A DNA stretch of 59,678 bases from Spirochaetota bacterium (GTDB taxonomy: Bacteria; Spirochaetota; Spirochaetia; JABEVK01). Location of the stretch: assembly GCA_020049045.1 (NCBI GenBank), contig JAIFLN010000017.1, positions 1-59,678 of the forward strand, written 5' to 3'. Shown piece by piece: positions 1,354 to 11,666 of this stretch; the stretch's first letter is position 1; each line of letters begins with the position of its first letter. The notes below the pieces were generated by a model. It saw only the letters and a list, made by a program, of their open reading frames with translations. It made no database searches and was not told the origin of the DNA. A program made the position numbers and the translations under genes.

Positions 1354-2982
1354 ATGAACGAGCTGATGACCGTGACCCTGTACCTCGGTGTCTTGGTCCT
1401 GGCCGCCTGGCCGCTCTCTCGTCCCCTGGCCGCCCTGATGAGCGGCACCGGGCTTTCAAAGCGAGGGAGTTCGATCGATCGGGTGGTCCTTTCGCTGTTT
1501 GGGCTGAAGAACGCCCCCGGTCAAACGGCACCGCAATGGGTCACAACGTTGCTCACCTTCTCGCTGCTGGAAATCCTGGTTCTGTTCCTTATCCTGGGTC
1601 TCGACGGAGTTCCTTGGGAACTGTCGCTCAACACGGCCGTCAGCTTCGTGACCAACACCAACTGGCAGAACTACGCCGGGGAATCGACCCTTAGTCCCTT
1701 CTCGCAAATGGTCGGCCTGGCGGTGCAGAACTTCCTTTCGGCGGCGTGCGGGTTCGCCGTCTTGGCGGCACTGGTTCGTGGTTTGGTTTGCAAGGAGTCC
1801 CAAGACCTGGGGAATTTTGCCGTCGATGTGGTCCGTTTCACCCTCTACGTTCTGCTTCCGATTTCCGTGGTCTACGCCCTGTTCCTGGTGTCCCAGGGTG
1901 TGGTCCAGACCTGGACTACCTCGGTAACCGTCCAGACGTTGGCGGGAACAACCCAGACCTTGGCGCTCGGACCGGTCGCCTCCCAGGAGGCCATCAAGAT
2001 GCTGGGCACCAACGGCGGCGGATACTTCAATGCCAACTCAGCCCATCCGTTTGAGAACCCCACGGGCCTTTCCAACTTCGTCCAGATGCTGTCGATGTTC
2101 CTGATTCCAGCGGCTTCGGTGTTTGCCTTCGGACGGGTGGTCCGCGACCGACGTCAGGGGATCTCGCTGGCCGTCGTGATGACCCTTCTCTTCGTTTTGG
2201 CCGTGGGCCTGGCCTGGTGGGCCGAGTCGTCGGTGGCGGGCTCCGCCACGGGCAACATGGAGGGAAAGGAGACCCGGTTTGGCATCTTCCCCTCAGTCCT
2301 GTTCAGCGCCATCACGACCTCCACTTCCACCGGTGCAGTCAATGCTATGCACGACAGCTACACGGCCCTCGGCGGGCTGGTTCCGTTGGCACTCATGCAC
2401 CTGGGCGAAGTTGTCTTCGGGGGCGTGGGTTCGGGACTGTACGGCATGCTTTTGATGGTTTTGCTGACGGTGTTTGTCGGTGGTCTATTGGTGGGACGCA
2501 CCCCCGAGTACCTGGGGAAGAAGATCGAGCCCCGGGAGATGACGCTGATCAGCATTGCCCTCTTGGTGACTCCGGTGGTCACGCTCTTAGGTACGGCGGC
2601 AGGGGTGTTGTGGCCCGACGCCGTGAAGTCACTGAACAACCCCGGTCCCCATGGCTTCACGGAGATTCTCTATGCGTATACGTCGGCGGCCAACAACAAC
2701 GGCAGCGCCTTCGGGGGGCTCAACGGCAACACTCCGTTCTTCAACCTCACCTTGGCTGCGGCCATGTTCGTGGGACGTTTCGGGGTGATGATTCCCGTCG
2801 TTCTTCTGGCCGGTTCCCTGGCCCAAAAGCGGTCTATGGCCACCACCAGCGGCACGTTGCCGACACACACGGTCACCTTTGCCGTCCTGCTCATCTTTTT
2901 TCTCTTCTTGTTGGCCGCCCTCAACTTCATCCCTGCCTGGTCGTTGGGTCCGGTGGCCGAGGCCCTCGGAGGTGCTTTTTGA
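1354..2982 (+). CDS. kdpA: K+-transporting ATPase subunit A
   Basis: Selectivity-filter motifs [23 protein letters not shown]; first gene of the operon. No kdpF upstream. Confidence 0.97.
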
Positions 2983-4955
2983 TGCGTGATACCCTTGTTC
3001 AGACCTTTGCCAAGCTCCATCCCCGGGAACAGCTGAGAAACCCGGTGATGTTCACCGTGTACCTGGGGGCCTTCCTGACCACCTTGTTGGGCTTCGGGGA
3101 ACCGACGCCCTTTGTGTGGTCGGTCACCCTGTGGCTGTGGGCCACGGTGCTCTTCTCCAATTTTGCCGAAGCTGTCGCCGAAGGACGGGGAAAGGCCCAG
3201 GCCGCAGCCCTCCGCAAGACCAGAAGCGAAGTTCAAGCCAAACGCCTGGCCTCACCTGACTGGGAGGCTCCCTTCACCGTCGTCGCCTCGACCAGCCTCA
3301 AGCAGGGTGACCTGGTGATCGTCGCAGCCTCCGAGACCATTCCCGCCGACGGGGAGGTTGTGCAGGGTGCGGCATCAGTCGACGAAAGCGCCGTCACCGG
3401 CGAGAGTGCCCCGGTGGTGCGGGAGTCCGGCGGTGACCGCAGTTCGGTGACCGGGGGAACCCGGGTCTTGTCGGACCGGTTGCTGATTCGCATCTCGGCG
3501 GCCCCCGGTCAGGGGTTTTTGGACCGGATGATTGCCCTGGTGGAAGGCGCCCAACGCCAGAAAACCCCGAACGAGATTGCCCTGACCATCCTGTTGGTCA
3601 CCCTGACGGCCATCTTTCTGGTGGTGACCGTGACCCTGTGGCCCTTCAGCCTGTTCGCCGTCCAGCAAGCGGGGAAGGGTACACCCCTCGGTTTGGTTTC
3701 TCTGGTGGCGCTGTTTGTCTGCCTGGCCCCCACCACCATCGGAGCCCTGCTCTCGGCCATCGGTATCGCCGGAATGAACCGCCTGTCCCGCGTGAATGTT
3801 CTGGCCACCTCGGGCCGGGCCGTGGAAGCCTCGGGCGATGTGGATACCTTGCTCCTCGACAAAACGGGGACCATCACCTATGGCAACCGGATGGCCGATC
3901 GGTTTGTTCCCCTCGAAGGCGTGAAACTCGCGGACCTGGCCCAGGCCGCTCTCAACGCCTCGTGGGCTGACCGGACGCCCGAGGGCCGCAGCATCCTGCC
4001 CCTGGCTCTGGCGGTACCGGGAGTCAAAGAACCGGACCTCAGCGGTCCTCATCGGGTCCACGAGTTCACGGCCCAAACCCGGATGAGCGGTCTCGATCTC
4101 GGGTCCATTCTGTATCGGAAAGGAGCACCTTCCTCCATGGCCGTTCCCGAGGCCGTGCAGAAGGAGGCGGACCAGGCCGCCCGGTTGGGGGCAACACCCT
4201 TGGCAGTGGGTGTGGACGGTCGGATCCTCGGTCTGGTGATTCTCAAGGACATCATCAAGGAGGGAATTCGCGACAAGTTCGCCCAGCTGAGGGCCATGGG
4301 AATCAAGACCATCATGATCACCGGTGACAACCCCTTGACCGCCGCCAGCATCGCCGCCGAGGCAGGGGTCGACGACTTTATCGCCGAGGCCAAGCCCGAG
4401 GACAAACTGGCACTGATCCGCCAGCTCCAGGCCGAAGGGCACCTGGTGGCCATGACTGGCGATGGGACCAACGACGCCCCTGCCCTGGCCCAGGCCGATG
4501 TGGCGGTGGCCATGAACTCCGGAACCCAGGCCTCCAAAGAGGCCGCCAATATGGTAGACCTGGACTCCAACCCCACCAAGCTCACCGAAGTGGTGTTGGT
4601 GGGCAAGCAGCTGTTGGTCACCCGGGGAGCCCTGACCACCTTCAGCATCGCCAACGACGTGGCCAAGTACTTCGCCATCCTGCCGGCGATGTTTTTGGCC
4701 CTCTACCCGGGTTTGGCGGTGTTGAACATCCTGCACCTGGCTACCGCCGAATCGTCCATTCTGTCCGCCGTCATCTTCAACGCCTTGATCATTCCGGCCC
4801 TGATTCCCTTGGCCCTACGCGGCGTCAAGGCGGCTTCCCAGTCTGCCGCAGCCCTTCTTCGGCGCAACCTCCTGATCTACGGCCTGGGTGGCCTCGTCTT
4901 GCCCTTCGTGGGCATCAAGCTCATCGACATCGTTCTCACCGGACATTTTTGGTGA
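2982..4955 (+). CDS. kdpB: K+-transporting P-type ATPase subunit B
   Basis: TGES, DKTGT, TGDN, GDGTND motifs; ATG overlaps the kdpA stop (TGATG). Confidence 0.97.
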
Positions 4956-5560: not shown

Positions 5561-8188
5561 ATGGAACTTCCGAGGCCGGACCCCGACGTTCTCCTCTCTC
5601 AAATCCAGGCTCAGGAGCAGGCCCCTCGAGGCTTGCTCAAAGTCTTTTTGGGGTACGCCGCCGGAGTGGGCAAGTCCTTCGCCATGCTCCAGGCTGCCCA
5701 GGTCGCCCAGCTCCAGGGACGAACGGTGGCGGTAGGGTGGGCGGAGCGCCACGACCGGCCCGATACGCTTGAGCTCTTGGCCGGGCTCCCCGAGGTGCCC
5801 CCCCGGGTGACCTCCGAAGGCTCCCTCACCCTGCGGGAACTGGATCTGGATGCTTGTTTGCAGCGCCATCCCGAAGTGTTGCTCGTCGATGAGCTTGCAC
5901 ACTCCAATGCGCCCGGCTCTCGTCACCAGAAGCGTTGGCAGGATGTGAAGGAGCTTCTGGATGCCGGCATCGAAGTTTGGACGACGGTCAACGTTCAGCA
6001 CCTCGAATCGATGAACGATGTGGTGGCCCGGATCACCGGTGTTCAGGTACAGGAGACGGTGCCGGACAGCCTCTTCGACCGAGCCCAGGAAGTAGAAATC
6101 GTCGATGTCGACCCTGAAGACCTTGTGGATAGGCTGAAGGCTGGCAAGGTGTACCGGCTGCCCCAGGCGCAGAAGGCCCTGGAGTCCTTTTTCCGAAAGG
6201 AAAACCTCCTGGCTCTCCGGGAGTTGACCTTTCGCCGGGCCGCCGAAAGGGTGGGGAAGGAAGTGGACCACGCCAGAACCCAAAAGAACGTCCAAGCCAT
6301 CTGGCCTGTGCGTGAGCGGCTGATGGTATCGGTGGGACCCAGTCCCCTCTCCGAGGACCTGCTCCGTCAGGCCGCCCGGATGGCGCGTTCTCTCGATGCC
6401 GAGTTGCTGGCGGTATCCATCGAGACTCCTTCGTCACGGTTGCTGGATTCGGCTTCCCAAGCTCGGTTGGCCCACAACCTCGGGGTGGCCGAAGCCCTCG
6501 GTGCCGAGACGGTCATCCTGCAGGGAGAGGACGTGGCCCGGGATCTGGTTGCCTTTGCCCGCAAGCGCAACGTCACCAAACTGGTGATTGGGAAGAACCG
6601 GGATACGGGTTGGAAGCGGTTTCTCCGCCGGACTATCGGGGACGAACTCCTGCGGCTGTCGGGGGATATCGATGTCTATGTCCTGACGGGCCGCAAGACC
6701 AATCCCTCCATCCCAGAGGTTCGGCGAACGCTTTGGCAGCTCCACTGGAAGAACTGGATCTGGGCGGTCCTTCTGGTGGCCGGGTTCGCCGCACTGGCGA
6801 TTCTTTTCCGCCAGTCGGGTATGGCCGAGGCAAACCTCATTCTGACCCTGTTGATGAGCGTGGTGCTTTCCGCGTCGCTTTTCGGCCTTTCGGCCAGCAT
6901 CGTCAGTTCGGTTTTGAGCGTTCTGGCCTTCAACTTCTTCTTCACCCAGCCCCAATACTCCTTGGCCGTCGATGACCCGCAGTACTATCTGGTGTTTGTT
7001 TTTCTTCTCATTGTCGGCCTGGTCATCGGTGCCCTGACTCATCGGCTTCGGACGGCTCTGGAAACCTCGCGGACCCGGGAGCAGAGGATCGAGACACTGA
7101 ACCGCATGCATCGTCAGCTGGCCGAACTGCTCTCCGCCGAGGCTGTCCAGTCCTGTGCTGAGGCTCTTGTCCAAGAGCTTCTGGGAAGCCGAGTGCAGAT
7201 CCTCCTTCGAGACCGTTCAGGTCAATGGCTGTCGACCGGTACGGTTCAGCCGGGAGATGTCGCCCTGTTCGACTGGAGTTGGGAGCACAACGAACGCGCT
7301 GGCTGGGGCACCGGAACTCTGTTTCGCCACCGGCTGTCGGTTTGGCCCCTCACGGGCACCCAGGGACCGGTGGGAATCCTCGCCCTCGAATCTCACAGCC
7401 ATCCGGCAGACTTGGTGGAGTCCCTGGCGGCCTTGATCACCTCGGCCCTCGAAAGGGTGGGGCTGATCGAGCAGACGCGAACACGGGACCGCCAGGTCGA
7501 AAACGAACGGACCCGCAACGCCATCCTCCACAGCCTGTCCCACGACCTTCGAACCCCTTTGGCCGTCCTGAGCGGCAGTCTGGAAGCCCTCGCCCTGTCC
7601 TCGGACACCCAGTGGGCACCACGGGATCTCGGGGTTGTCGACTTGCTGAAGAAGGAGGCCGATGGCTTGGCAAGGCAGGTCGAGAACCTGCTGGAACTCT
7701 CCCGGCTCTCGGACCAGGACTGGAGCCAGTCTCTGGTGGAGGTTCCCGTCGAGGAACCTGTCCAGGGTGCCCTCGAGCGATTTTCCAGGACTCACCCTCA
7801 GGCCGTTGTTCAGCAGGAAGTGCCCGCCGAGGTTCTTACGGCTCCCATGGAGCCCCGGCTTGTCCACCAGGCTCTGATCAACTTTCTGGAAAATGCCTGG
7901 GAGTATGCCGGTTCTGAAGGACTGGAGTGTGTCGTCACAGTGGACAGGAACCTCGTTCGCTACGAAGTCCGTGACCGGGGACCCGGGGTTTCCCAAGGTG
8001 AGCGGGGCAAGATCTTTCAAAAGTTCGTCCGAGGGAGTTCGATCACCGAGAGTACCCACCGGGGAACAGGTTTGGGCCTCGCCATCGTCACCGAGGTCGC
8101 CCGAGTCCATAACGGACGCACAGGAGTGGAGGATCGACCGGGTGGTGGATCGATCTTCTTTCTGGAGTTTCCCCGATGGCAGTCCTGA
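5561..8188 (+). CDS. kdpD: Sensor histidine kinase KdpD
   Basis: Walker A GYAAGVGKS, DELAHSN, Usp domain, four TM helices, SHDLRTPL H-box, GTGLGL G2 box. Confidence 0.96.
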   Translation: MELPRPDPDVLLSQIQAQEQAPRGLLKVFLGYAAGVGKSFAMLQAAQVAQLQGRTVAVGWAERHDRPDTLELLAGLPEVPPRVTSEGSLTLRELDLDACLQRHPEVLLVDELAHSNAPGSRHQKRWQDVKELLDAGIEVWTTVNVQHLESMNDVVARITGVQVQETVPDSLFDRAQEVEIVDVDPEDLVDRLKAGKVYRLPQAQKALESFFRKENLLALRELTFRRAAERVGKEVDHARTQKNVQAIWPVRERLMVSVGPSPLSEDLLRQAARMARSLDAELLAVSIETPSSRLLDSASQARLAHNLGVAEALGAETVILQGEDVARDLVAFARKRNVTKLVIGKNRDTGWKRFLRRTIGDELLRLSGDIDVYVLTGRKTNPSIPEVRRTLWQLHWKNWIWAVLLVAGFAALAILFRQSGMAEANLILTLLMSVVLSASLFGLSASIVSSVLSVLAFNFFFTQPQYSLAVDDPQYYLVFVFLLIVGLVIGALTHRLRTALETSRTREQRIETLNRMHRQLAELLSAEAVQSCAEALVQELLGSRVQILLRDRSGQWLSTGTVQPGDVALFDWSWEHNERAGWGTGTLFRHRLSVWPLTGTQGPVGILALESHSHPADLVESLAALITSALERVGLIEQTRTRDRQVENERTRNAILHSLSHDLRTPLAVLSGSLEALALSSDTQWAPRDLGVVDLLKKEADGLARQVENLLELSRLSDQDWSQSLVEVPVEEPVQGALERFSRTHPQAVVQQEVPAEVLTAPMEPRLVHQALINFLENAWEYAGSEGLECVVTVDRNLVRYEVRDRGPGVSQGERGKIFQKFVRGSSITESTHRGTGLGLAIVTEVARVHNGRTGVEDRPGGGSIFFLEFPRWQS

Positions 8189-8868
8189 ACTCAAAAGTCC
8201 TGATCGTCGACGATGAGGCCGCCCTCCGCCGGTTTCTCGTCGACACCCTGCATCACCAAGGGTACGCCGTCGAAGAAGCGGGAACCGCCGAAGGTGCCCT
8301 CCACTTGGTGGCAAGCTTGAATCCGGATCTCGTCCTTCTCGACCTAGGACTCCCTGACCTGGACGGGAAGGAGGTCGTCCGCCGAATTCGGGAGAGTCAT
8401 TCCATGCCCATCCTTATCCTTTCCGCCCGGGACCAGGAAAGTGAGAAAGTGGCGGCCCTGGAAGCGGGTGCCGACGACTACCTCACCAAACCCTTTGGGA
8501 GCGCCGAACTCGTGGCCCGAATCAAGGTAGCCCTGAGGCACCGGGCCAGAGAACGGGGCCCTATCACCAGGCAGAGTTTCGGCGATCTGGTCTGGCTGCC
8601 CGAGGTACAACAGGTTCTCCACCGGGGAAGCCCCCTCCACCTCACGCCCATGGAATACCGGCTCTTTGAGTTCCTGGCCTCGTCCCCCGGGCGAGTCCTC
8701 ACCTACGGGACGATACTCCACGAAGTGTGGGGACACTCCAGCTTGGAGCAGGCCCAGAACGTGAGGGTCACGGTGGCCGCGTTGCGCCGAAAGATCCATG
8801 ACGGCGAGGACGGTGCACGGTACATCGGGACGGAAGTGGGAACCGGCTATCGGTTCTTGGCACCGTAG
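8176..8868 (+). CDS. kdpE: OmpR-family response regulator KdpE
   Basis: LLDLGLPD, GADDYLTKPF, C-terminal TEVGTGYRF; follows kdpD. Confidence 0.95.
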   Translation: MAVLNSKVLIVDDEAALRRFLVDTLHHQGYAVEEAGTAEGALHLVASLNPDLVLLDLGLPDLDGKEVVRRIRESHSMPILILSARDQESEKVAALEAGADDYLTKPFGSAELVARIKVALRHRARERGPITRQSFGDLVWLPEVQQVLHRGSPLHLTPMEYRLFEFLASSPGRVLTYGTILHEVWGHSSLEQAQNVRVTVAALRRKIHDGEDGARYIGTEVGTGYRFLAP

Positions 8869-8996: not shown

Positions 8997-9395
8997 TCAC
9001 GGCGTGACCAGTGCAACCGACGGATAGTAGGTTTTGTAGCGTCCTGAGTCACGGGTCAGCAGGGGGAACCCCGTTGCCTGAGCATGGGCGCCGATGAAAA
9101 AATCTGGTAATGGCGCGGTTTTTGAGCCGCCTTTGCGGCGATAGGCCAGAAAGGCCTTCGCCGCGAGAAACAATGCCGATTTTGGGAGTTCCTGCAAGGT
9201 CAATCCCAGTTTGGCGAGAAGCTCATCGACTTCCTGCACCGACTCGGCACCCGCACAAAGTTCCGAAAAGATCATGGGATTGATCACCAACCCCTGCGGA
9301 CGCTGAAGTTCCAGTTGACGCTCCGACCAGTCTGCCCAGGTCGCATCGTCGTGGGCGATGTCCAGAATTACGTTTGTATCAACGAGAATTGGCAC
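8997..9395 (-). CDS. vapC: PIN-domain toxin (VapC/FitB family)
   Basis: ILVDTNVILD N-terminus; LPDFFIGAHA...LLTRD motif; GTG start. Confidence 0.92.
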   Translation of the reverse strand: MPILVDTNVILDIAHDDATWADWSERQLELQRPQGLVINPMIFSELCAGAESVQEVDELLAKLGLTLQELPKSALFLAAKAFLAYRRKGGSKTAPLPDFFIGAHAQATGFPLLTRDSGRYKTYYPSVALVTP

Positions 9396-9399
9396 CTAG

Positions 9400-9699
9400 G
9401 AGCCTGTCGGACTTAGGGTTTCGGAGACAAAGGGAGGAGATTTCGAGGGAAAAAGTTGGGATGACTGAGCCTCGAATCGAGATTCGAGGCGAACGAAGCG
9501 CGACTTTTGCACCGAAAGATCCTCCTTTTGGACCGAAAGGCCCGCGGCCGTCGCATTTTGAGCGGGCTTCTGGGCGCCGGGCGAACTTTCTCAGTCACAC
9601 CATAACGGATTATGGCGTGCCTTCGAAAGCCAGGGGCATGTATGCCCCCGGCATCCCAGCCCCTCCGCTCAAAATGCGGCCCCTAAGTCCGACTGGCTC
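9400..9699. mobile_element. 300-bp non-autonomous MITE, probably IS5-family related
   Basis: TIRs GAGCCTGTCGGACTTAGGG (9400-9418) and CCCTAAGTCCGACTGGCTC (9681-9699), 18/19 match; flanking CTAG at 9396-9399 and 9700-9703; no transposase. Confidence 0.88.
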
Positions 9700-9927
9700 C
9701 TAGTCCTCTCCCCGAGTCATTTTCAGGATTTCATCGGTGGTTTGCCGCCCCTTCCAGAGACCTCGAGCAGAAGTCAGTGGAACTTTGGGAACAGGAGTAT
9801 CATCGACGGCTTGCGCTAGAATCGCCCTGACTTCTGCCTCCATCGACCGTTGGTGCTCTGCCGCTCGCATCCTAAGCTTCTGTTTGACAGGTTCGTCCAG
9901 ATTGCGGATGGTTAGGCTTGTACTCAT
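9700..9927 (-). CDS. FitA-like ribbon-helix-helix antitoxin
   Basis: SLTIRNLDEPVKQKLRMRAAEHQRSMEAEVRAIL is the FitA/StbC RHH signature; upstream of the PIN toxin. Confidence 0.9.
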   Translation of the reverse strand: MSTSLTIRNLDEPVKQKLRMRAAEHQRSMEAEVRAILAQAVDDTPVPKVPLTSARGLWKGRQTTDEILKMTRGED

Positions 9928-9933
9928 CTATGA

Positions 9934-9962
9934 AGTGTAGGCATTGCTAGCATTGATGTCAA
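9934..9962 (-). promoter_or_regulatory. Sigma70 promoter with antitoxin operator
   Basis: TTGACA-17-TACACT, -10 ending 6 nt before the ATG; TGCTAGCA palindrome (9945-9952) in the spacer. Confidence 0.8.
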
Positions 9963-9986: not shown

Positions 9987-11666
9987 CTACTCTACGGGAA
10001 TCTCGAGTGTCACCCGGGTTCCACCTCCGGGCCGAGCCGACAGGAGGCAAACGGCACCAGAACCGTAGCGCAGCGCCAGCCGTTGTCTGACGTTCGACAC
10101 ACCGTAGCCGCGTGATGTAGCCTCTCCTTGGTTGAGCGAATCGATCAGACTGGGCGGAATTCCGATACCATCGTCTTCTACCTCAATCGTCAGTCGCTCG
10201 GAATCGAGACGGCATCGGATGATGATGGTGGCAGGCCTTCCCAATCCTTCCAGCCCGTGAAGAATGGCATTTTCGACAAAGGGCTGCAGGACGAGCTTGG
10301 GAACCATAATCCGCATTGCCGAAGGGACGGCTTCGATCTGGTACACGAAGCGCTCCGCCTTGAACCGGAACTGCTGGATCCGCAGGTAGGCACGCACCTG
10401 TTCCAATTCCTCCTCGACCGAGATCATCTCTTCTCCCCGGTTCAGGGAGTGACGGAAGAACACGATCAGTGAGTCGACCACCTCGGCAATCTCGTTGGCC
10501 TCGATATCCCGTGCCATCCATGAGACTGTGGCCAGAGTGTTGTAGAGCAGGTGCGGGTTGATTTGAGCTTGCAGTGCTTTCAACTCTGAAGACTTCTGGA
10601 GCATGCCCCGCTGAAAGTTCTCCCTGAGCAGTTCGTCAATTCTCACGGATAGGCCGTCGAGCCGGTGGGAGAGCTCGCCGATCTCGTCAGCGACGGGGTC
10701 ATCGATTTGCGAGGTGAAGTTGCCGGCCTCGATCTGTGCGGCATGGGCGACCTGGCGTTGCAGCCTTCGGGAAAAATTCCGTGCCATCCTCTGACTGGCT
10801 GCTGCCAGGGCGGCAAGGGAAGCAAGTGCCACAATAAGCAGGATGGGGCTGGCGTCAGGAAGTGACTCCAGCAGATTGGCCGCAGGAACCGCTGAGTTGA
10901 TGGTCCAGGGGGCTTCAGCCAGTGTGCGCGAGTAGGCTGACTTGGGGTATTCCTTGCTCTCATGAGCAAGGGTCCCGCGAATCAAACGATGGTTCTCGTC
11001 CTCGGCCCATAGTAGAATCCAAGGCTCGCCCAACGCCACGAGGCTCGAAAAGATCCTGTCCACACTGATTCTGAGGCGAAGAAGACCGATGGGCTGCGTC
11101 TCCACCTGAGCGCTGCCCAGGCGAAAATACAGGCGGTCGAAGACCACGGTCCGTGGCTCTTGGGAATCAAGCCAGATGTGGGTGGTGCTCCCTGTGTCCG
11201 CCAGCCTGGCGTAGTCAGGAATCTCGGCGAGGGTCCTGACCGGAATCACCAGATCGTCGTAGCGGGCCAAGGTCTGATTGGCAACGAAGTACGAAACGCT
11301 GGCGACCTCCGGATTCACCGACCGCAGTTGTCGAAGGTGATCGATAAAACCTCCGACAACGTACGCTTCCCAAATCTGAAGATCACTGGTGTATTGCCGG
11401 GAAAGGACCTCGTTCACCGAATTATCCGTATAAAAGATGTCCTCAATGCGGAGGCCGAGCCGCAGGTTGTAGGAGATGGCATCGGCAACCGCGTCTACTT
11501 GCCTTCGTCCTGTTTCCTGTAGGTAGCCATGTTGGCTGTTGCCCAGCAGGAGAAAGGCAGAAACGCCCATCGTCGCTATGCCCAGGAGCACAACCCAGAG
11601 GTAGTTCAGAAAGAGTTTGTTGGCGAGATTCAGCGAGCGGTACCACGCGCCTATTCGCTCTCTCAT
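9987..11666 (-). CDS. YesM/LytS-type sensor histidine kinase
   Basis: Two TMs, HAMP, LQAQINPHLLYNTL H-box, LQPFVENAILHG, DDGIG. Confidence 0.93.
   Translation of the reverse strand: MRERIGAWYRSLNLANKLFLNYLWVVLLGIATMGVSAFLLLGNSQHGYLQETGRRQVDAVADAISYNLRLGLRIEDIFYTDNSVNEVLSRQYTSDLQIWEAYVVGGFIDHLRQLRSVNPEVASVSYFVANQTLARYDDLVIPVRTLAEIPDYARLADTGSTTHIWLDSQEPRTVVFDRLYFRLGSAQVETQPIGLLRLRISVDRIFSSLVALGEPWILLWAEDENHRLIRGTLAHESKEYPKSAYSRTLAEAPWTINSAVPAANLLESLPDASPILLIVALASLAALAAASQRMARNFSRRLQRQVAHAAQIEAGNFTSQIDDPVADEIGELSHRLDGLSVRIDELLRENFQRGMLQKSSELKALQAQINPHLLYNTLATVSWMARDIEANEIAEVVDSLIVFFRHSLNRGEEMISVEEELEQVRAYLRIQQFRFKAERFVYQIEAVPSAMRIMVPKLVLQPFVENAILHGLEGLGRPATIIIRCRLDSERLTIEVEDDGIGIPPSLIDSLNQGEATSRGYGVSNVRQRLALRYGSGAVCLLSARPGGGTRVTLEIPVE

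Follow-up and report, generated by a model that had tools for sequence, protein, structure and literature searches.

Whether a type II toxin-antitoxin (TA) module stays silent or becomes active depends on the ratio of antitoxin to toxin, and the short distance between the two genes is one of the factors that set this ratio. Repeats located inside operons are known to alter the expression of the genes that flank them, as exemplified by the Correia elements of Neisseria, the ERIC/IRU elements of Yersinia and the MIRUs of Mycobacterium tuberculosis, which are co-transcribed and which, through hairpins or small ORFs, affect coupling or the processing of the mRNA. In vapBC operons with overlapping or abutting genes, translational coupling sets the antitoxin:toxin ratio; such coupling requires overlaps or very short distances, and the -4 overlap matters in NgVapBC1, a haloarchaeal vapBC of Natrinema gari (PMC13488343). 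MITEPye1 is an IS1182-derived MITE with 18-bp terminal inverted repeats (TIRs) and 4-bp direct repeats (PMC11578231). The locus analysed here brings an element with IS1182-type ends into the junction of a VapC-type pair in a Spirochaetota bacterium. In the open-access literature, covered mainly through titles and the openings of abstracts, we found no description of a MITE between toxin and antitoxin genes. The window referred to below is the whole stretch of DNA that was analysed, 59,678 nucleotides long (contig JAIFLN010000017.1 of assembly GCA_020049045.1).

Position of the element in the toxin-antitoxin pair

The features of the locus, in window coordinates, are the following.

8997-9395, minus strand: toxin gene, 132 aa, PIN/VapC, GTG start (PF01850, 2.2e-11)
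9396-9399, no strand: left CTAG (target-site copy), with the minus-strand TAG directly before the toxin GTG
9396-9512, minus strand: internal 38-codon ORF, GTG at 9512, closed by the TAG next to the toxin GTG
9400-9699, no strand: MITE body, with ends of IS1182 type by sequence comparison, a TIR stem and two internal hairpins
9400-9418, plus strand: left terminal inverted repeat, 19 nt
9520-9527, minus strand: Shine-Dalgarno-like AAGGAGGA, 7 nt before GTG 9512, in a hairpin arm that is paired in the MFE fold
9681-9699, minus strand: right TIR, 19 nt, agreeing with the left one at 18/19 positions
9700-9703, no strand: right CTAG (target-site copy), containing the antitoxin TAG stop (9702-9700, minus strand)
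9700-9927, minus strand: antitoxin gene, 75 aa, FitA-like ribbon-helix-helix (PF22513, 3e-20)
9934-9962, minus strand: promoter-like site TTGACA-17-TACACT, 10/12, a consensus match only, with 0.4 expected in shuffles

The original prediction described a 300-bp MITE with 19-bp TIRs matching at 18/19 positions and a CTAG duplication, inserted exactly between an antitoxin stop and its toxin start. The sequence, the repeat search and the sister copies described below bear out this structure, and the ORF coordinates and Pfam assignments agree with the position. Window positions 9400-9699 form a non-coding body of 300 bp between the antitoxin stop and the toxin GTG. Written with a single W, the TIR 19-mer is expected 0.03 times in the window and found twice, a count of two or more being reached in 0/100 shuffles. 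An inverted-repeat search of the window found arms of 23 nt (9396-9418 / 9681-9703) that are 96% complementary and 262 nt apart, which corresponds to 18/19 for the TIRs proper plus the palindromic CTAG. Since CTAG is palindromic and the element ends in G...C, the duplication may be of only 2 nt (TA). The longest ORF inside the element, 109 aa on the plus strand, matches no Pfam family; no Rfam family or tRNA was matched in the element, and neither a sigma-70-like promoter nor a terminator-like site was found inside it. A single terminator-like match is located in the toxin ORF, where 1.3 are expected by chance. With its TIRs, CTAG on both sides, lack of coding capacity, sister copies and empty sites of sister copies, the feature is a MITE.

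Both flanking ORFs are intact, as had been claimed. The antitoxin gene lies directly upstream of the toxin gene on the same strand, and the toxin GTG directly follows the left CTAG. The toxin keeps the acidic residues D6, E45, D98 and D116, all invariant across 10 aligned homologues, and scores 35.3 bits on the NCBIfam VapC model, whose cut-off is 80; a PDB sequence search with the toxin returned no match. The promoter-like site just upstream of the antitoxin ATG is a candidate operon promoter. On one side the pair is flanked by a response-regulator ORF of 230 aa (8176-8868, plus strand; label from reading the translation), and on the other by a 559-aa ORF that looks sensor-histidine-kinase-like in a reading of its translation (9987-11666, minus strand).

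With 304 nt between stop and start, the window pair lies outside the close spacing of VapBC modules. In silico deletion of the element together with one CTAG makes the antitoxin stop abut the toxin GTG, as the original prediction had it, and the homologous pairs are in keeping with this arrangement. No close orthologue of the window pair was found, the best identity being 58-60%, and the congeners yielded no close copy either; the pre-insertion junction is therefore reconstructed from homologues and not observed. In contig C33 of congener G001, a FitA-like antitoxin is likewise paired with a VapC toxin (60% and 58% identity), and the antitoxin stop abuts the ATG of the toxin gene (gap 0). Homologues of the toxin were found at 80 metagenome loci, 74 of which have enough upstream DNA for the gap to be measured. 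In 71 of these 74 loci the nearest upstream ORF ends between -16 and +25 nt from the toxin start, the commonest gap being -4 (27 loci). This ORF belongs to an antitoxin family in 69 of the 74 (7 FitA-like and 62 of MazE/AbrB type), and in three it has no family match. Gaps of 358 and 372 nt in the two other loci were considered as similar spacers and rejected, as their upstream ORFs are not antitoxins and no TIR-bounded insert is present. Five uninterrupted homologues have antitoxin genes that end in GAC-TAG, like the window antitoxin. Because the gaps of homologous pairs fall between -16 and +25 nt in 71/74 loci, the 304-nt spacer is a derived state. As a separate observation, the metagenome contigs (L179-L258) associate one toxin clade with two antitoxin folds, that is, partner swapping.

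Sister copies, a second insertion and the transposon family

The MAG (G000; 3.97 Mb, 211 contigs, 90.9% complete) holds four further copies of the element and one solo end, as listed here.

C7:9009-9313: copy, 83% identity
C114:163-453: copy, 75% identity
C155:7969-8182: copy, 93% identity, truncated, right end missing
C163:4366-4607 (locus L004 1445-1686): copy, 93% identity, about 68 nt deleted internally
C111:6743-6765: solo end

CTAG is present at both ends of the window copy (C161) and of the C163 copy, and at the sole remaining end in C155 and C111; the outer base of the flanking word differs in three congener copies. Among the 60 other genomes searched, three of the four congeners carry copies (66-73% identity) and none of the 56 genomes outside the genus does. 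The congener copies number seven, six of them full-length and one partial (G004:C315). Solo TIRs of about 20 nt at C111:6743-6765 and at G001:C20:55091 (L045 ~1501-1520) are located between the ends of genes; they have neither an interior nor a second end and are probably remnants of deleted copies.

The C163 copy occupies the TAG stop of a gene of alanine-dehydrogenase-like type; the next gene, which is Lrp/AsnC-like, starts with a GTG 4 nt further on. Its empty site is found in G003:C114, where the same two genes are separated by the stop, 4 nt and the GTG; this contig is exactly colinear with G000 once the C163 element and one CTAG are removed, which fits the retention of one 4-nt word. An uninterrupted counterpart also exists for the C155 copy (see below), and insertion polymorphism relative to orthologous empty sites in congeners is thus shown for two sister copies. 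The empty site that precise excision would leave at the window locus was not seen: no joint across 9396-9703 occurs in the contigs of four runs, and contigs cannot show absence. The only joint seen at this locus, in contigs of run X1, is a 66-nt internal skip from 9581 to 9648, a variant with the same kind of internal deletion as the C163 copy. The original prediction was to be abandoned if the element had neither copies nor a cognate IS and if orthologous pairs all carried the spacer; copies do exist, and homologous pairs lack the spacer.

A truncated second copy splits an unrelated Phd-like antitoxin/PIN toxin pair of the same MAG, an observation that is new here. The C155 copy (G000:C155:7588-8418; locus L003 1120-1950) lies between an 84-aa Phd/YefM-like ORF and a 124-aa PIN toxin gene (PF01850, 5.5e-9) whose ATG follows 6 nt after the CTAG. 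The match of the antitoxin-like ORF to PF02604 is weak (E 0.006), the domain being present in 4 of the 10 database relatives that are left of 11 matches once its own record is set aside, and a PDB sequence search with this antitoxin gave no match. The ORF is complete to ...WKPGL, after which five codons are read from the truncated element. In G001:C55 the orthologues of both genes (84% and 82% identity) are uninterrupted, with the TAG followed by 9 nt and the ATG. The window and C155 modules share no detectable similarity; this excludes duplication of one TA-plus-MITE segment and indicates that the two insertions are independent. In the same genome, two adjacent pieces at G000:C65:23556-23778 are 88-89% identical to residues 1-38 and 84-124 of the C155 PIN toxin and look like a paralogue of this toxin whose middle part has been deleted.

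Whether TA junctions are favoured can be judged from the supply of target sites. For the 3.97 Mb of the MAG, base composition predicts 15027 CTAG sites, and 2455 are present; of the 20 PIN genes, only 2 have a CTAG in the 20 nt before their start, and both carry the element. By a rough tally, the MAG offers up to 203 other stop-start junctions with CTAG. Because so many other junctions are on offer, placement of two of the five copies at TA junctions by chance is unlikely, the probability being about 1e-3 by our own post hoc estimate. The wider family gives no sign of such a preference: none of 48 sampled elements lies between toxin and antitoxin genes. This check covered 91 flanking ORFs, with a family scan of the 66 that are at most 200 aa long, and the single TA-related match was to a HicB-like gene located away from any TA junction. 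Likewise, none of the seven congener copies is flanked by a pair of small same-strand ORFs that would fit a TA junction, as assessed from ORF size and strand only.

The family to which the element belongs was approached through its ends. The terminal 16 nt, followed by GG after two free bases, occur at at least 122 loci in species-representative genomes and, among the matches listed, in Pseudomonadota, Spirochaetota, Phycisphaerae and others. From the matches listed, 80 loci were taken (L055-L134), with 107 distinct ends, and CTA stands before 72 of these. Of the 72 ends that are paired, again among the matches listed, 54 bound elements of 160-179 bp. One of these loci, L104, is an internally deleted element of 1136 bp that has the same ends and encodes a truncated IS1182 transposase. 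This protein matches NF033551 (IS1182) with 1.2e-70 and 238.8 bits over model positions 2-293 of 488, matches PF05598 as well, and reaches 3.8e-05 and 23.2 bits on the IS5 model NF033581. The closest annotated plasmid relatives of L104 are IS1182-family elements including ISAzo2, whose ends have CTAG on both sides and are identical to the MITE at 13/15 terminal bases. Judged by these end and transposase matches, the ends of the MITE are of IS1182-family type and not of IS5 proper. The original prediction had related the CTAG target to some IS5-family elements; the target word stands, and the IS5 attribution was close and inexact, since both the L104 transposase and the ISAzo2 ends are of the IS1182 family.

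The genome-wide check of the TIR that had been proposed yielded the sister MITEs and no autonomous IS. The only IS1182-family transposase of the MAG (C194:9464-10999; L260 ~1444-3055; 445 bits) is bounded by 18-nt inverted repeats about 1.6 kb apart that are unrelated to the MITE ends. No cognate transposase was found in the MAG, where PF13340 has no match and PF01609 and NF033551 both match the single C194 gene, and no partner IS was found in the congeners, where exact TIR matches pair at about 200-290 bp or are solo. Repeats often remain unassembled in MAGs. In the open-access literature, the terminal 15-nt end has a single occurrence, the Geobacter sulfurreducens primer OmcE_fwd, which begins with the MITE's end (PMC11077965). 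In all, the family attribution is corrected from IS5 to IS1182, and the MITEs that share the 16-nt end across many phyla gain a 300-bp structure-conserving branch. We have high confidence in the structural part of our explanation, which comprises the identity and family of the element, its precise location between two intact ORFs, the derived state of the spacer and the polymorphism of two sister copies.

Predicted effect on the toxin and alternative readings

The transcribed strand of the element is predicted to fold with an MFE of -177.1 kcal/mol (z -8.9). In an alignment of seven full-length copies from three species, the TIR stem and the two internal hairpins are kept (108 pairs, 95.2% paired cells), and 31 pairs show compensatory changes, against 16.8 +/- 2.6 in shuffles (0/500 reach 31) and 2-7 in slid controls. 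As the sequences are few and related, this covariation shows that pairing is conserved and not what it is for. In 10 of 11 copies the antisense RNA is more stable than the sense RNA, so the fold evidence does not favour the transcribed strand. The toxin GTG adjoins the 23-bp terminal helix and has no Shine-Dalgarno (SD) sequence before it, and opening positions -18 to +12 around this GTG is predicted to cost 33.0 kcal/mol when the element is present and 12.0 kcal/mol when it is absent, figures that ignore co-transcriptional folding and the helicase activity of the ribosome. The 38-codon ORF inside the element is probably incidental. In RNA runs X9 and X10, 5-6% of the sampled words are present.

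The best explanation runs as follows. A MITE with IS1182-type ends took as its target the CTAG that the antitoxin gene of FitA-like type has at its last codon and TAG stop, and duplicated this word, as a consequence of which the antitoxin gene keeps its stop and vapC still has a GTG immediately behind the second CTAG. As reconstructed, stop and start were in direct contact before the insertion, an arrangement that allows coupling by termination and reinitiation. Now 304 nt of strongly folding RNA separate the two genes, and the purine-rich 3' end of the antitoxin gene, the would-be SD of the toxin, is far from the toxin GTG. From this change in distance, from 0 to 304 nt, we infer that translational coupling was lost. 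Toxin synthesis is probably strongly reduced, because the GTG lies against the 23-bp helix, lacks an SD and carries the predicted opening cost of 33 versus 12 kcal/mol. The antitoxin would be made as before, which would leave an antitoxin-biased module. Taken as a whole, this reading of a MITE on the antitoxin stop and an uncoupled, antitoxin-biased module seems to us fairly probable, and its functional part, which draws on the distance, the lost SD and the predicted helix, is on balance what we would expect. The toxin ORF is intact despite the nearest sister copies being only 93% identical, which could mean that the gene is still in use. A mobile hairpin placed exactly on the junction would amount to a natural experiment in which two genes are uncoupled and neither is damaged, and the two cases in one genome suggest that CTAG-targeting MITEs may recurrently let bacteria disarm or tolerate chromosomal toxins. 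If the toxin is expressed as before, the locus is merely a tidy insertion site.

Other readings differ in how much of this they accept. One that goes further holds that the MITE is no random passenger in this lineage and has been retained repeatedly at antitoxin-toxin junctions as a safety catch that uncouples and mutes the toxin while both genes stay intact; the module would be a reserve that loss of the element could in principle re-arm. It draws on the two independent insertions in unrelated modules and on the presence of a junction CTAG in only 2/20 PIN genes, and we consider it improbable. One that stops short of any regulatory role regards the element as a neutral fossil: the TA module would be dispensable, a lowered toxin output harmless, and the hits in TA pairs a reflection of where CTAG happens to lie. 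The rarity of this word, its frequent coincidence with TAG stops, the frequent location of the family on stop codons in the congeners, the 0/48 result of the wider family and the immobility of the C155 copy, which lacks its right end, are all as this reading would have it, and it overlaps the best explanation in also accepting reduced toxin output. The confinement of junction CTAG words among PIN genes to the two that carry the element, and the low post hoc estimate for random retention of two of five insertions at TA junctions when up to 203 others were available, count against it; we regard it as unlikely, yet as a reading to be reckoned with. The toxin could also escape such a reduction if the SD-like motif at 9520-9527 and GTG 9512 drove translation of the 38-codon ORF and ribosomes were relayed to the toxin gene, which would then still be made, perhaps at a new level; a subfamily of this kind could settle in operon junctions without polar damage. 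The ORF and the motif are indeed present in the window element and are shared, free of indels, by four copies of the MAG's subfamily, the distance from the copy to the downstream start is 0, 6 and 4 nt for C161, C155 and C163, the downstream genes are intact, and 5/5 copies have the same orientation relative to the flanking genes. The two-sided p for this shared orientation is about 0.06, however, and an open frame of 38 codons arises by chance in about 1 of 6 cases by our own estimate. Moreover, the SD-like stretch is the arm of an internal hairpin, AAGGAGGA is found only in four copies of the MAG, and in the seven others (C114 and six congener copies) it is replaced together with a compensatory change in the opposite arm, which points to selection on pairing and not on an SD, and the antisense strand is the one that folds better. 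A relay of ribosomes thus appears improbable to us.

The remaining alternatives concern the reality and the origin of the spacer. A repeat can lead an assembler to join antitoxin-side and toxin-side contigs that are not adjacent, and no single public contig record spans the whole element; since each junction is bridged only by separate records, the evidence that the sequence runs on through the element comes from the assembly. In public contigs from the likely source samples, the depth is about 10 in the flanks and reaches 146 inside the element, as expected of a multi-copy repeat. Nevertheless, the flanks have equal depth on both sides (~9-10), both junctions are bridged at 99-100% identity in X1 (records 1 and 7) and the toxin-side junction also in X2 (record 11), and the joined genes are of cognate types, with the same FitA-like/VapC pairing recurring in G001:C33 and in 7/74 metagenome loci, so that an artefact is very improbable. 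That the spacer is a native intergenic region, or a derivative of an IS5-family element, is more improbable still. Targets of the CTAG/YTAR type and 4-bp duplications are typical of IS5 too, and an N-terminal DUF772 domain is common to the transposases of IS1182 and IS5; against this, the only transposase found between such ends among the matches listed, that of L104, is of IS1182 type, the homologous pairs have no such spacer, and the sequence is a dispersed repeat.

Comparison with known systems

Among elements, MITEPye1 of Paracoccus yeei is similar to the window MITE in being non-coding and intergenic, in having IS1182-type TIRs and 4-bp direct repeats, in its long stem-loop fold and in being thought to be mobilised in trans (PMC11578231). 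The window MITE differs from it in sequence, in host phylum, in its length of 300 bp with two internal hairpins, in its location inside an operon on a stop codon, and in that no matching transposase was found in its genome. ISAzo2, located on plasmid 2 of Aromatoleum aromaticum EbN1 (NC_006824), is likewise flanked by CTAG and agrees with the terminal 15 nt at 13 positions; unlike the MITE, it is an autonomous element of 1545 bp with a 451-aa transposase and an unrelated interior. The MITEs of about 162 bp found in many phyla have the identical terminal 16-mer and are hairpin-shaped, whereas they are about half as long and none of the 48 examined lies between TA genes. The Correia, ERIC/IRU and MIRU repeats, whose in-operon arrangement the window MITE may have in common with them, have unrelated sequences and transposase families.

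Among modules, the window pair resembles vapBC operons such as NgVapBC1 in having an antitoxin gene of ribbon-helix-helix or similar type followed by a PIN toxin gene, and in the weak GTG start of the toxin (PMC13488343). It is unlike NgVapBC1 in that its junction has been opened by 304 nt.
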